From the IMG/VR virus record IMGVR_UViG_2700989159_000002: a DNA stretch of 4,552 nucleotides, one strand, 5' to 3'. Positions within the stretch are counted from its first letter, which is position 1; the number at the start of each line of letters is the position of its first letter. Below, piece by piece: positions 1 to 4,552 of the stretch. The position numbers and the translations under genes were made by a program. The stretch comes from a virus. Lineage: Duplodnaviria; Heunggongvirae; Uroviricota; Caudoviricetes. The notes under the pieces were generated by a model, which saw nothing but the letters and a program-made list of their open reading frames with translations, was not told the DNA's origin and ran no database searches.

Positions 1-16
1 GAGTATTTTTAGTCAT
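1..16 (-). CDS. Possible 5' end of the next downstream gene (ATG at 16..14, reads MTKNT and runs off the window); product unknown
   Basis: Minus-strand ATG at 16..14 preceded by AAGAGG (revcomp of 25..30) with an 8-nt spacer. Only 5 codons are visible, so this is a start-site prediction only. Confidence 0.25.
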
Positions 17-141
17 CCTGTTTACCTCTTTCTCAGGAAGTTTAGTCTCCAGGATTCCCGGGGCGGTTCACGTTGGGTTTTTCTGCTCATTATTAGCTCC
101 TTCTGATGCCATTCTATTTCAGGAAGGAGTGTCCGTTAAAC

Positions 142-1872
142 TCAGGCTACCTCAACTCTCTTTTCAATAGGGTCAAGGTTTTTCATCCCGCCAAGATCTT
201 CTGCCACCTGTTTGAGCATTGACCTTGTTGATGGCGCATCAATTTTTGCACCTGCAGGCATCGCCTTTTCAACATTGCGATAAAGCTGGTCGCTTCGTTT
301 CATCAGCGCAGACATTCTTCCATTGACCGTATCAATAAACTTGTCGCTCATACCAAGAGCATCTTTTGCACCGGAAACGCGATCAATTATCTCACCCGCG
401 CCCTGTGCTAGCTGCCTGATTGCTTCATTTTCCTGCACCTGTAGAGCAGAACCCGCACGGGACTTGATTGCTTGCTCAACTGCCTTGTATTGCTCGTTCC
501 CGGAAAAGTGTGAAGGGAGTAATGAATCAACATTAAGCCTTTCAGCAGACTCCAGAACTTCAGCCTGAGGATTGATATCTAGTTCATCAAGCGATGAAGC
601 GAGATTTGGCCTTTTTTGTGCTGCTACTGTGCGAACGACTTCCTCTGGGTTCTTCGTCGCAGGCGTCATTGGTACACCTTGTGCTACTCTTGCCTCTGCG
701 GCATGAACCGCAGGATTTGTTGCTGCAGCGGCATCACCGGAGAATGGTGATGTTTCTGTTGGCGCAGTGGTCGCTCTCTGTGCAGATGTTTTATTGCCAC
801 TAATTATATTTGATGCACCACGAACACCACGGGTAACGCCATTTATCAGGCCATGCGTAGCAATGCTAAGTCCGGCATTAATAGCGGCATTTTCGGCAAA
901 ATCACCCCGTTGATTCGCCGCGTCAGCGAGAGAACCAATGACCATGTTTCCAGCTACACCTGCTCCAGGAACAAGATAACCGCCTATTGACTCTCCAGCT
1001 TGCGCGTAGGGGTCTGTCGGTCTGTCTACTGGACGATAAACATCATCCAATACTTTTGGCCCCCCAAGCCCCTGACTGATTGCATTAATCAGACTTGCGC
1101 CACCCTGCAATACGTCAAATGGTATGTTTACCAGACCACGACCAGCCTGTTCTGCAATTTGCCCTGCACTTTGACCACCAGTGAGCCAATCGCCAGCTTG
1201 TTGCATCAATGATGGTTCTTCCCGTGTTGGTGCATTATTGGCCTGATTAACTGTTTGTTGCTGAACAGGTTTCGGTGCGACAGAACTTACGGGTTGAGGT
1301 GGCTGCTGACTGGCTGCCTGCTGCTCAATCTGAGCAAATGGATTATTTGGGTCTGACTGCACACCTGATGCCGATACTTGTTCGGATGACTGTACTTCCA
1401 GTTGTGCAAACGGGTTGTTAGGGTCTTGCTGAGGATGTACCTTTGCAGAGGTGGCGCGCTGTTCGACTGTTGAGTCTGTCACCGGGTCACCAGCCCATTG
1501 AGCAAAGCGATCATCAACGTAACCGCGGCCTTCAGGTCCTGGCGTATATTCACCACGCTTTGCCTTCATAACGTTGCCGGGACCGTCGTGATAAGCCTGA
1601 AGAGAGTCACGCCAGTTACCAAACTGCTGGTACATCTTTGCCAGATAGCGCGCGCCAGCGTCAGCCTGATATTCGGGGTTTTGCATTTGCTCATCGGTAT
1701 AACCCATATCACGCCATGTCCCAGGCATGACCTGAGTCAATCCTACAGCCCCGGCGGAGCTTACTGCGGCAGGGTTGTAAGAAGACTCCTTGGCACCCAG
1801 TGCAGTCATCAACCCTTCTGGCACACCGTAACGTGCGCCAGCCTGCTCTAACAAATCACGGTAATTAGCCAT
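142..1872 (-). CDS. Virion ejection/internal protein with N-terminal lytic transglycosylase (SLT) domain, at the position of P22 gp16
   Basis: 576-aa ORF, ATG at 1872..1870 directly after the upstream stop (TAAATG), TGA stop at 144..142. Residues ~20-100 carry family-1 lytic transglycosylase motifs read directly from the translation: AKESS (candidate catalytic Glu29, codon 1786..1788), GLTQVMP, AYHDGPG. This is followed by a Q/P-rich linker with a duplicated DPNNPFAQ motif, a Gly-rich hydrophobic segment and a charged helical C-terminus. The gp16 assignment is by synteny and size only. Confidence 0.85.
1330..1425. repeat. Imperfect tandem direct repeat (72-bp period) inside the SLT-protein linker, encoding two copies of DPNNPFAQ
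   Basis: Plus-strand tgagcaaatggattatttgggtc (1331..1353) and tgtgcaaacgggttgttagggtc (1403..1425) are near-identical and 72 nt apart. They encode residues 174-181 and 150-157, both DPNNPFAQ. Confidence 0.6.
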
Positions 1873-3273
1873 TTACTGCCCCAAAGATGGAAGATATCCG
1901 TAGCGATTAATGAAGTCGATTGACAGCTCGGGGTGCTGCTTCAGGTAATCTATAGAAGCCTGAGGCGCTTCCACTCGCTTGATACCGTTTTGCTGAACGT
2001 ACTTACCAACCGCCTCATTACGCTTCTGGTTGAGCGTGTTCAGGATGACGCCAGCGTTGCGACGAAAGGACTCCTCGCTCTGCGAGTTCTGCAGCGAACC
2101 AACAGCCTGGTCGAGCTTTTTGCCCTCGGCATCAGAAAGTGCGCCCATGCCTCGCATGGCCTGAACCGCTGTCAGGTATGCTTGTGATTTAAAGGTATCA
2201 AGTCGTGCCTGAGTGTCTGCAGCCTGTGAGCCTGGAACGTTGGGGATTACTCCACGTAAGCCTGTAATGCTCTTAAGTGAAGGAGAACTAACGATATCGT
2301 TCAGAGTGAACATGCTGGTTGTGAGGGTGTTGATGCCGTCTTTGTAGCCATCATTTAGCGCTTGCTGCTTCTGCTGCAACTGCTGGTTGTTGGCTGCTAT
2401 GCGGCTCTGTATTTCCTGGCGCTTCAGGTCGTTAGTTTCTGCTGATAGCATCCGGTCAAGGCGCTTATTTTCGTTGTTAATGCGGTTTGTTTCTGCGTCC
2501 AGATTAATGCGCTGCTGACCTAAATTCGCCTGGATATCTTGTCCGCGCATTGTGATTGCCTGATTCCGAGCGGCGGTTTGCGAATCCAGATCCTGACCGC
2601 GCATGGTAACCTGGCGACCCTGCATTTTATCCTGTAGGTCAAAGTATTTTTCGGGCCCGAGACTGTTCATCCCCAGGTGATCGACAAATTCGCCGAACTG
2701 CCGCGGGTTCTGTTGGTACATCTGAGCGACGTCATGAGGATTAACGCCAACACGAGCTAACTCACCGGCGTTGTTTTGCAGCCATGATTGCATTGCTTCT
2801 GGAGACGATGACGCAAGGCGTGCGCCAGCCGCTAAGGTGCCGATAGAATTACGCTGCTCTTCATCAATGAATCCCATGCCTTTACGAACGGATTCAATCT
2901 GGTCTGGATATTGAGTAGCCAACTGACGCAAAGCACCGCGATCACCAGACGCATAAGCATTAGCGTACGCCTGCTGAAATTCTTTCTGCCGCTGAGCCTG
3001 CTTTTCCTGCTGAAAAACACCCGCAATACCTGAAAGACCTTGCAAAGCAGTCAGCCCAACATTGTTAGCGCCTGAACGCTCAATATCATTGTTCTGCCTG
3101 ATAAGCTGANNNNNNNNNNNNNNNNNNNNNNNNNNNNNNNNNNNNNNNNNNNNNNNNNNNNNNNNNNNNNNNNNNNNNNNNNNNNNNNNNNNNNNNNNNN
3201 NNNNNNNNNNNNNNNNNNNNNNNNNNNNNNNNNNNNNNNNNNNNNNNNNNNNNNNNNNNNNNNNNNNNNNNNN
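1873..3273 (-). CDS. Q/N-rich coiled-coil ejection protein at the position of P22 gp20; the 5' end lies inside the assembly gap
   Basis: Continuous minus-strand reading frame from 3109 down to the TAA stop at 1875..1873, which directly abuts the ATG of the next gene. About 411 aa are supported by sequence; the start codon and roughly 55 N-terminal codons are hidden in the N-run 3110..3273. The sequence is rich in Q/N/R with coiled-coil character and MRGQD-type repeats. The ORF-track N-terminus (MGRWYW...) is read in a frame overlapping the upstream gene and is an artefact. Confidence 0.75.
   Translation of the reverse strand, partial: XXXXXXXXXXXXXXXXXXXXXXXXXXXXXXXXXXXXXXXXXXXXXXXXXXXXXXXQLIRQNNDIERSGANNVGLTALQGLSGIAGVFQQEKQAQRQKEFQQAYANAYASGDRGALRQLATQYPDQIESVRKGMGFIDEEQRNSIGTLAAGARLASSSPEAMQSWLQNNAGELARVGVNPHDVAQMYQQNPRQFGEFVDHLGMNSLGPEKYFDLQDKMQGRQVTMRGQDLDSQTAARNQAITMRGQDIQANLGQQRINLDAETNRINNENKRLDRMLSAETNDLKRQEIQSRIAANNQQLQQKQQALNDGYKDGINTLTTSMFTLNDIVSSPSLKSITGLRGVIPNVPGSQAADTQARLDTFKSQAYLTAVQAMRGMGALSDAEGKKLDQAVGSLQNSQSEESFRRNAGVILNTLNQKRNEAVGKYVQQNGIKRVEAPQASIDYLKQHPELSIDFINRYGYLPSLGQ
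3110..3273. other. Assembly gap (run of 164 N)
   Basis: Uninterrupted n characters from 3110 to 3273. Confidence 1.
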
Positions 3274-3278
3274 CCCCC

Positions 3279-3971
3279 TTAAAACAACGAGCCAAGCAAT
3301 CCGATACCAGCACCAATACCAGCGCCCCAAGGCGTTGATGTTCCCAAAAGGCTGGCAAGACCTGCACCGGCAATCGCACCAGACGTGCCACCGCTAATTG
3401 CAGTCTGAAGACTTGATGGTTTATTGGCATTAGCAGCGGCAAGAGCTGCGCTTTGCTGTGCAATGCTGCTCATGTTGTTGGCGTACGTCTGCCCGGCGTT
3501 TGCCTGACCTTGCAGCGCACCAAGCCCAACGTTTGCCAGATTGTTGTAATTGCTCATCTGATTTGATAACCAAGACTGACCGAGTGTCGGCGCGATCGTA
3601 GCCAGTTGATTGCTTGTGGCTGTCGAACCAAGTCCACCCGTCGCCTCCGCAGCAGCAAGACTCTGGTAACGCGCCTGCCCTGCAAGGTCTTTATACTGCT
3701 TAGAGTTGTAATACTGATTAAGTGCCTGCCCCTGACCTTCTAAACTGGAAAGGTTCTGAAGCTGGTTAACATACTGCTCCGCAAGAGGCGTGAACGGAGC
3801 AAGGTTTTTCATGATCGTCTGCCACTGCTGATTTTGCAGGTCTGCAGCATACTTCTGGGCTTCTGCTGCATACTTTGCGCTTTTATCAGAACTGCCACCT
3901 TTCCCGCCTTTTTCAGGGCAATAAGGTTCCTCGCCGCGCAGTTTTCTGCCCAGCTTAAATGCATATAACAT
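3279..3971 (-). CDS. Ejection protein at the position of P22 gp7, with a C-terminal glycine-zipper hydrophobic segment
   Basis: 230-aa ORF, ATG at 3971..3969 preceded by GGGAG (revcomp of 3978..3982) with a 6-nt spacer, TAA stop at 3281..3279. The size matches P22 gp7 (about 229 aa, recalled). The C-terminal ~37 residues (GGTSGAIAGAGLASLLGTSTPWGAGIGAGIGLLGSLF) are Gly/Ala/Leu-rich and membrane-insertion-like. Confidence 0.85.
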   Translation of the reverse strand: MLYAFKLGRKLRGEEPYCPEKGGKGGSSDKSAKYAAEAQKYAADLQNQQWQTIMKNLAPFTPLAEQYVNQLQNLSSLEGQGQALNQYYNSKQYKDLAGQARYQSLAAAEATGGLGSTATSNQLATIAPTLGQSWLSNQMSNYNNLANVGLGALQGQANAGQTYANNMSSIAQQSAALAAANANKPSSLQTAISGGTSGAIAGAGLASLLGTSTPWGAGIGAGIGLLGSLF

Positions 3972-3973
3972 GG

Positions 3974-4429
3974 CTATCTCCCGTGATTCAGGAAGTCGAT
4001 TAGTTCTTCGCGTGTGGCGCTGTAAAAAGTCACGTCATCCACGCCTTTGAAGTATTTCTTGATGGTTCCTACACGCTTAAGGCCAATCATTGCGCAGTAC
4101 ATCTGACCGTGTCGGAATTTGCGTGCAGCGAACGATGTTACGCACTGAACGGTGGTGTTAGTCAGAATGTATCGCCAGAACGCCAGCCCAATTTCCTTGC
4201 TGAAGCCGCGAATCTCTGGCAGGTACATGGCGTGGCAATCTAATGTCAGCGGCTGAATCTCCTGATAGTAAACAATGCCGCCAAACTGACCGTGCACGTT
4301 CACCTCAAAGTAACGGCATTCAGGTTTGTAGTCGTATCCATCACCGTTGTTGCTCCCGGCGATAATGTCAGGGTGATTTCCGACTGCTTCTATCAGGTCG
4401 ATGTTTCGCGTTGGTTTGAATGTAATCAT
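3974..4429 (-). CDS. Small conserved late protein at the position of P22 gene 14; function uncertain
   Basis: ORF with ATG at 4429..4427 (the track uses the adjacent in-frame GTG at 4432..4430), GGAG 8 nt upstream, TAG stop at 3976..3974. The start overlaps the upstream stop by 1 nt (TGATG), and the stop lies 2 nt from the next ATG. Placement is by synteny only. Confidence 0.8.
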   Translation of the reverse strand: MITFKPTRNIDLIEAVGNHPDIIAGSNNGDGYDYKPECRYFEVNVHGQFGGIVYYQEIQPLTLDCHAMYLPEIRGFSKEIGLAFWRYILTNTTVQCVTSFAARKFRHGQMYCAMIGLKRVGTIKKYFKGVDDVTFYSATREELIDFLNHGR

Positions 4430-4552
4430 CACTGCTCCGCGATTATCTTGATGGTTGTGGCAGTAAACGCCGCACCATTCGACTGAATGGTTAACGTACT
4501 GCCATTTGTGGCAAGAAAGCCGTCTTTATCCACGCTGAAGAACGTAGCTAAC
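4429..4552 (-). CDS. 3' end of an upstream late gene (C-terminal 40 aa: LATFFSVDKDGFLATNGSTLTIQSNGAAFTATTIKIIAEQ); by P22 synteny this would be the tail-needle gene 26, unconfirmed
   Basis: The only open minus-strand frame from the window edge. It ends in TGA at 4431..4429, overlapping the next ATG by 1 nt, which is the classic coupled junction. Other frames hit stops immediately. Confidence 0.55.
   Translation of the reverse strand, partial: LATFFSVDKDGFLATNGSTLTIQSNGAAFTATTIKIIAEQ

Follow-up and report, generated by a model that had tools for sequence, protein, structure and literature searches.

The window analysed here, a 4,552-nucleotide stretch of viral DNA (IMG/VR record IMGVR_UViG_2700989159_000002), very probably derives from a P22-like (Lederbergvirus) prophage and carries the gene of its P22-gp16-type ejection ("DNA transfer") protein, in a known mosaic variant which begins with a predicted family-1 lytic transglycosylase (SLT) domain. 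This copy is truncated by an insertion sequence, and the proposed role of the domain in infection is discussed below for the intact relatives of the protein.

The only long open reading frame (ORF) that spans positions 1498-1872 is found on the minus strand, at 142..1872, where it encodes 576 amino acids, and its first 125 codons correspond exactly to positions 1872..1498. The TAA stop codon of the preceding gp20-type gene, whose 5' end is obscured by a stretch of Ns at 3110-3273, is followed directly by the ATG of this ORF. The order of the genes on the minus strand is gp14-gp7-gp20-SLT ORF (Table 1), and the same order is found in P22, Sf101, Sf6, Huey, and IME10. Further support comes from the protein itself, given that residues 221-353 share 81% identity with residues 53-189 of P22 gp16 (E=1e-67), and that the ORF matches phrog_770, a family annotated as "DNA transfer protein", with E=2e-107. 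The original prediction had assigned the protein to the gp16 position, and this assignment is borne out by the upstream genes matching PF11039, PF25688, and PF16928, in this order, together with the identity to the P22 gp16 core.

A second ORF, at 1498..1851 of the plus strand (117 aa, TTG start), was rejected as an antisense shadow, given the strong homology on the opposite strand. Neither the antisense nature of this ORF, nor the strand of the gene, nor its truncation by IS600 at codon 573 had been mentioned in the original prediction.

Table 1. Features of the window, with positions counted from its first letter.
Feature	Position	Strand	Basis or detail
Left end of an IS3-family element, inside the IS600 fragment	1..70	-	"IS3 family transposase" in matching records
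IS600, approximately its first 85 bp (left end and 7 codons of orfA)	71..154	-	100% identity to the IS600 left end
Sf101-type body of the gp16 protein (residues 354-573), ending at the IS junction	155..812	-	Identity to Sf101 gp13
Conserved P22 gp16-type core, residues 221-353	813..1211	-	Matches to P22 gp16 and phrog_770
Gln/Pro-rich low-complexity linker, approximately residues 126-220	1212..1497	-	Composition, repeats, low pLDDT
Two DPNNPFAQ repeats in the linker	1402-1425 and 1330-1353	-	
Predicted N-terminal family-1 lytic transglycosylase (SLT) domain, residues 1-125	1498..1872	-	Pfam, AF2, Foldseek
Motif AYHDGPG	1576-1596	-	
Motif GLTQVMP	1723-1743	-	
Motif AKESS	1780-1794	-	Glu29 codon GAG at 1786-1788
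gp20-type ejection protein gene	1873..3273	-	PF16928, E=4e-55; phrog_2534
gp7-type ejection protein gene	3279..3971	-	PF25688 (P22_gp7), E=3e-134
gp14-type gene (DUF2824)	3974..4432	-	PF11039, E=1e-52

The predicted lytic transglycosylase domain

At the level of the sequence, the SLT signature of the 576-aa ORF is far beyond what chance would provide. Residues 7-110 match the Pfam SLT profile (PF01464) over positions 2-110 of its 117, with E=9.3e-25 and a score of 86.9 bits against a curated cut-off of 21.3 bits. In a phmmer search, the top match among the PDB sequences was E. coli Slt70 (E=5e-10, approximately 32% identity), and Glu29 of the window protein pairs in this alignment with Slt70 Glu478, which is found within a ...QES... 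motif.

The predicted fold is in agreement with this assignment. The AlphaFold (AF2) model, which was built with an alignment of 117 sequences after a single-sequence model with a pLDDT of 54 had been discarded, reached a pLDDT of 88.4 and a pTM of 0.82, with a pLDDT above 94 over residues 11-100 and below 50 past residue 130, and it presents the goose-lysozyme-like alpha-helical fold. When the model was compared with the PDB using Foldseek, the top 50 matches were essentially all lytic transglycosylases, including Slt70 (TMq 0.73), LtgA (TMq 0.75), P. aeruginosa Slt, MltE, MltC, MltF, and MltD, with a probability of 1.00 given for Slt70 and LtgA. The N-terminal domain of T7 gp16 was also among the matches, as 7k5c_B (TMq 0.67) and 7eyb_I, which are structures of the ejectosome and core, with scores in the range of 0.67-0.69. 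The original prediction had read an SLT signature in the first ~125 residues, and had named a search against PF01464 and a structural prediction as the means of checking it; the signature is present in these residues, the Pfam match is strong, and the model has the expected lysozyme-like (SLT) fold, with lytic transglycosylases as its closest structural matches.

The best matches in both sequence and structure are family-1 lytic transglycosylases, i.e., E. coli Slt70, MltE, and MltC, and P. aeruginosa Slt, which share the ES, GLxQ, and AYxxG motifs with the window domain. The latter differs from the Slt70-type enzymes in the lack of a signal peptide, a lipobox, and the superhelical U and L domains, and in its fusion to an ejection protein.

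An exchangeable N-terminal cassette and its relatives

The SLT domain and the Gln/Pro-rich linker, i.e., residues 1 to approximately 206, show 100% identity among the proteins of Sf101 (911 aa), Huey (875 aa), and IME10 (797 aa), and the three proteins diverge past approximately residue 206, where the cassette is found on different gp16 bodies. Huey tracks Sf101 up to approximately residue 300 and diverges thereafter. In IME10, the stretch of 100% identity stops at approximately residue 206, which places the junction inside the linker, and the body switches at residue 207, with residues 208-797 being 97% identical to residues 76-665 of Sf6 gp13. The comparison with P22 gp16, which the original prediction had recommended, was run together with that of Sf6 gp13, and no SLT domain was found in either protein; their N-terminal modules are short (approximately 52 residues in P22 and 75 in Sf6), unrelated, and also end in a Gln/Pro-rich stretch.

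Given that identical residues 1-206 are found on differing bodies, and that P22 and Sf6 lack the SLT domain and have Gln/Pro-ended modules of their own, the SLT domain and linker are best described, on these alignments, as an exchangeable N-terminal module with its junction in the linker. The near-identity of the cassette over divergent bodies also suggests a recent horizontal spread. A more specific reading, which we put forward tentatively and would give somewhat less than an even chance, is that of a discrete cassette which is spreading recently and recombines within the Gln/Pro-rich linker onto gp16 bodies that are otherwise unrelated.

In terms of its distribution, DNA with at least 95% identity to the SLT domain was found in 68 of 5,426 complete E. 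coli genomes. A gp7 probe matched 1,194 E. coli genomes, 811 of them at a coverage of at least 80%, so that the cassette is present in roughly 6-8% of the carriers of P22-like prophages. Among the phages, a protein identity of at least 98% in the SLT domain was found in Sf101, APC_JM3.2, IME10, Huey, Dewey, and phiKp_30, as well as in a fragment from ECO26.1.

The closest known system is gp13 of Sf101 (YP_009153087), which is identical to the window protein at 566 of 573 residues (99%), and shares with it the place directly behind gp20, as well as the SLT cassette, the linker, and the body. The difference lies in the length, given that Sf101 gp13 is intact, with 911 aa, and the window copy stops at residue 573, at the IS600 junction. 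The KJ832078 record names the Sf101 protein "transglycosylase", RefSeq lists it as "lytic tail fiber protein", and its family, phrog_21143, matches the window protein with 1,365 bits. P22 gp16 (609 aa) and Sf6 gp13 (665 aa) occupy the same gene position, although they differ from the window ORF not only in the lack of the SLT domain, but also in their C-terminal two thirds, which are highly divergent.

The same architecture, with the SLT domain at the N-terminus, is also found in other genera, i.e., in Hungariovirus C130_2 (1,021 aa) and Murrayvirus IME_EC2 (1,007 aa), where the genes are arranged in the order gp7-gp20-X-tailspike and X is an SLT-bearing "DNA transfer protein", as well as in Lumpael, Skarpretter, and the sort- phages. 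The SLT domains of this type are 56-66% identical to that of the window and share the AYHDGPG motif, and the proteins are approximately 38% identical to the window ORF over residues 9-302.

The original prediction had also compared the protein with T7 gp16 (internal virion protein D, "Peptidoglycan transglycosylase gp16"), and this likeness holds for the architecture, as in both cases the ejection protein that comes last and is the largest has an SLT domain at its very N-terminus. Residues 3-112 of the window protein align in phmmer with residues 11-126 of T7 gp16 (E=0.002, approximately 24% identity), and Glu29 falls on Glu37 of T7 gp16, which is highlighted as catalytic in the review of Swanson/Cingolani (PMC8954989). 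On the other hand, the similarity is confined to the SLT domain, with none past residue 112. By analogy, the window protein would work like the N-terminal domain of T7 gp16, yet it does not belong to the IVP-D family, given that the phmmer alignment with T7 gp16 is limited to residues 3-112. The P22-gp16-type and T7-IVP-D-type proteins have been presented as alternative solutions that exclude one another (PMC4819975). The linker (residues 126-220) was also considered as a homologue of the "molecular tape" of T7, and this was rejected, given that the phmmer match ends at residue 112 and that the DNA contains no tandem repeat. The alignment of phrog_342 to the window ORF reached residue 238.

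Proposed role in infection

The mechanism proposed here begins with the replacement of the short N-terminal module of a P22/Sf6-type gp16 by the cassette of approximately 206 residues, formed by the SLT domain and the Gln/Pro-rich linker. The intact protein, such as Sf101 gp13, would then be packaged in the capsid alongside gp7 and gp20, and would be expelled through the tail at infection, whereupon the SLT domain would cleave the MurNAc-GlcNAc bonds beside the tail tip. The opening of the peptidoglycan would allow the gp20/gp16 conduit to reach and enter the inner membrane. No hydrophobic signal sequence can be read at the N-terminus of the window ORF, and the periplasm would thus be reachable only through ejection from the virion. 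P22 gp16 is present in approximately 12 copies per virion and is released before the DNA (PMC4992974), and a wall-opening role of the same kind has been suggested for the N-terminal domain of T7 gp16 (PMC8954989). It is by analogy with these systems that we infer the packaging, the ejection, the muralytic activity, and the entry role of the SLT-bearing gp16.

A second protein must be considered in this context, as these phages still encode gp4, which was found as PF11650 in the matching Shigella prophage locus. In Table 2 of Latka et al. 2017 (PMC5380687), which cites Moak and Molineux 2004, the muralytic activity of the P22 virion is attributed to gp4, in agreement with the original prediction. 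This activity of gp4, a neck protein, is the only one of its kind reported for the P22 virion. Given that gp4 is encoded alongside the SLT-bearing gene, the gene content indicates an addition of the putative SLT activity to that of gp4, rather than a relocation of the gp4 function, and the SLT domain may contribute redundantly or only under some conditions. The interpretation that the muralytic domain sits on the gp16-type protein itself is thus supported, with the qualifications imposed by the retention of gp4 and by the pseudogene state of the window copy.

These considerations lead to the strongest of the alternatives, to which we would assign nearly an even chance, i.e., that the SLT domain, although genuine and active, is dispensable, being a redundant or conditional accessory that matters only for particular hosts or growth states, as gp4 or another route would already bring P22-like phages through the wall. 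The corresponding motif of T7 gp16 is reported to matter in such a conditional manner. Most P22-like phages, including P22 and Sf6, have no SLT domain on the gp16-type protein, the cassette is found in 68 E. coli genomes in comparison with the 811-1,194 that have the gp7 gene, and gp4 is retained where the cassette is present. However, the cassette is 99-100% conserved on at least three gp16 bodies, and all the representatives of Hungariovirus and Murrayvirus that were examined carry it, which suggests selection. This alternative also refines the proposed wall-opening role more than it opposes it.

The proposed wall-opening role further depends on the activity of the domain, which can be assessed from the residues that are conserved. 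In the alignment of 117 homologues, E29, S30, G41, A42, G44, Q47, A74, Y76, Y94, and G97 are invariant. The catalytic Glu and the Ser of motif I (ES) correspond to E29-S30 in the window ORF, motif II is found as GLTQ (GLMQ in the family), with G44 and Q47 among the invariant positions, and motif III reads AYHDG in comparison with the consensus AYNAG, with A93, Y94, and G97 being kept. The deviation in motif III could be taken as a sign that the domain is inactive and functions as a peptidoglycan-binding or structural module, e.g., as an anchor for the periplasmic conduit, a role for which there is a parallel in T7, where the counterpart domain also forms the "wings" of the periplasmic tunnel (PMC8954989). 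We consider this improbable, however, given that the Glu-Ser pair, the G..Q motif, and the Tyr of motif III are invariant, and that the predicted fold superimposes on active enzymes. The substitutions of N by H and of A by D are common to all the phage ejection-protein relatives examined, so that AYHDG is a signature of this clade rather than a mark of decay, and E29, S30, G44, Q47, and Y94 are kept throughout the phage clade as well. The window SLT domain is thus apparently catalytically competent, judging from its conserved residues and its modelled fold.

Truncation of the window copy and annotation of the variant

The window copy ends at residue 573 of the 911 found in the full-length gp16-type protein, given that the junction with IS600 lies after codon 573. 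The insertion sequence donates the last three codons of the ORF (EVA), as well as the stop codon at 142-144. At codon 573, the sequence GAAAAGAGAGT continues into CTTTCGGGCAG in intact loci, such as that of E. coli F1005, and into TGAGGTAGCCTGAGTTTAACGG in the window. The intact 911-aa ORF is found in Sf101 and in the prophage of E. coli F1005, and the possibility that the "partial" flag given by PGAP to the F1005 copy reflects a shared truncation was ruled out, as this ORF runs to the full 911 aa. The left end of IS600, matched at 100%, adjoins an annotated IS600 transposase in the matching record. The IS3-family end found inside the IS600 fragment belongs to an element which we take to be IS629-like, and it is followed in the matching locus by HTH_Tnp_1 and rve ORFs.

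In a search that included one genome per species, two genomes, those of Shigella flexneri SFBU1023 and "E. coli" ECMA0423, were found to carry an identical truncated ORF (100%), and in both loci IS elements and a phoA fragment lie downstream. On either side of the run of Ns, the window matches the SFBU1023 locus at 100%. The genes found upstream in the latter are gp4, gp10, one for a needle protein whose knob domain is of the Sf6 type, gp14, gp7, and gp20, and transposase ORFs and the phoA fragment are found downstream. Neither the missing 338 codons nor the tailspike gene were found within 6 kb downstream in this source-like locus. Given the truncation by IS600, the loss of the 338 codons, and the absence of the tailspike gene downstream, the locus is what remains of a Shigella flexneri prophage, and the gene is a pseudogene. 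The truncated copy cannot yield a complete ejection protein.

The co-option of the truncated 576-aa product by Shigella as a host cell-wall enzyme, which might be imagined from the 100% identity of the truncated ORF in two genomes and from the SLT domain and 450 further residues that are still in frame, was rejected as very improbable, given that the absence of a signal sequence would leave the product in the cytoplasm, that the end of the ORF is made of IS-derived codons, that the gene is a late-operon fragment of a decayed prophage which has lost its tailspike, and that a perfect match between such close relatives is a poor guide to selection.

The caution with which the original prediction had avoided any claim of novelty was justified, as the variant is annotated in Sf101 (KJ832078) and in RefSeq prophages, and the E. 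coli proteins among the matches listed are annotated as "lytic transglycosylase domain-containing protein" or "transglycosylase SLT domain-containing protein". The SLT-bearing gp16 is thus an already annotated, moderately common mosaic variant, and is not new. In the literature searched, neither an explicit description of an SLT-bearing P22-like gp16 nor experiments on this protein were found, although an earlier published account may exist, and virion proteomics, zymograms, or mutants were likewise not found for any SLT-bearing member. More generally, the internal virion proteins of podoviruses are said to "variably host tail lysozyme domains" (PMC4819975), and a 2022 review describes the P22-like phages as lacking a transglycosylase domain at the N-terminus of gp16, a statement that is too broad.

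For the window itself, the practical message is one of annotation, i.e., that the gene is a pseudogene, cut short by IS600, within the remains of a Shigella prophage. For the family, the gp16 bodies of IME10 and Sf6 form a natural near-isogenic pair (97%), with and without the cassette, and, if the reading of a discrete, recently spreading cassette is true, natural pairs of this type would permit a direct test of whether an ejected muralytic activity alters the host range of P22-like phages or the dependence of infection on the growth state. The route by which the DNA conduit of the short-tailed P22-like phages passes through the peptidoglycan is still poorly explained, and the presence of a T7-style SLT domain on the gp16 of a minority of these phages corrects a published generalisation.

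Masked junction and nested insertion sequences

The coordinates of the features considered here, both in the window and in the loci with which it was compared, are brought together in the table below.

Features of the window and of the comparison loci
Feature	Position	Remark
Run of 164 N	window 3110-3273	covers the gp7-stop/gp20-start junction
IS600 left end, ~85 bp	window 71-154	cuts the gp16-type gene short
IS3-family element	window 1-70	sits inside the IS600 fragment
Peptide DPNNPFAQ, two copies	window 1330-1353 and 1402-1425	in the Q/P-rich linker that joins the SLT domain to the gp16 core
Intact SLT-gp16 ORF, 797 aa, phage IME10	L009 4501-6894 = NC_019501 31064-33457	
gp16 homologue, 665 aa, Salmonella phage VSe13 (MT932212)	L011 5276-7273	named "lytic transglycosylase domain-containing protein"
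gp16-type gene, E. coli F1005 (NZ_OY754353)	L002 5617-8352	PGAP: pseudogene, "incomplete; missing C-terminus"

Given that the window carries 164 N where the otherwise 100% identical locus of Shigella flexneri SFBU1023 (L006) has 99 nt (4665-4763), the length of the masked stretch was not kept, and the 485-aa gp20 with X residues returned by the ORF finder is an artificial product of this run.

At the truncated end of the gp16-type gene, the IS600 fragment is broken after seven codons of orfA by the IS3-family element, presumably IS629-like, which leaves nested insertion sequences over window 1-154. The SFBU1023 locus lacks the remainder of gp16 as well as a tailspike gene, and has a phoA fragment downstream.

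Database annotation of the gp16 homologues

The intact ORF of IME10, in which the SLT cassette is joined to an Sf6-type body, is unannotated in all three records of this phage. Pfam finds no SLT domain in the VSe13 homologue despite its name, which appears to have spilled over from relatives that share its body and do carry the domain.

In the E. coli F1005 copy, the PGAP annotation ends at codon 573, and the ORF reads on past this codon to give an intact protein of 911 aa, 99.7% identical to Sf101 gp13. As the annotation stops at a point that matches the truncated protein from Shigella in length, this truncated form may have served as the annotation reference. The best PHROG profile match to the window protein, PHROG 21143, has exactly 576 positions, as many as the truncated ORF has residues, whereas the intact protein has 911 aa. 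Its label, "lytic tail fiber protein", misleads as a name for an internal ejection protein.

Linker repeats and SLT motif III

The two DPNNPFAQ copies, spaced 24 residues apart, are kept in Sf101, Huey and IME10; the repeats do not match the "molecular tape" of T7 gp16, and a search of the linker for a tandem repeat in the DNA found none.

Motif III of the SLT domain (window 1576-1596) reads AYHDGPG in every phage ejection-protein SLT domain examined, a survey which took in the Lederbergvirus cassette, C130_2 and IME_EC2 (comparison loci L012 and L013), whereas the bacterial homologues have AYNAGP. Judged from these sequences, AYHDGPG is a signature specific to the clade of phage ejection-protein SLT domains.
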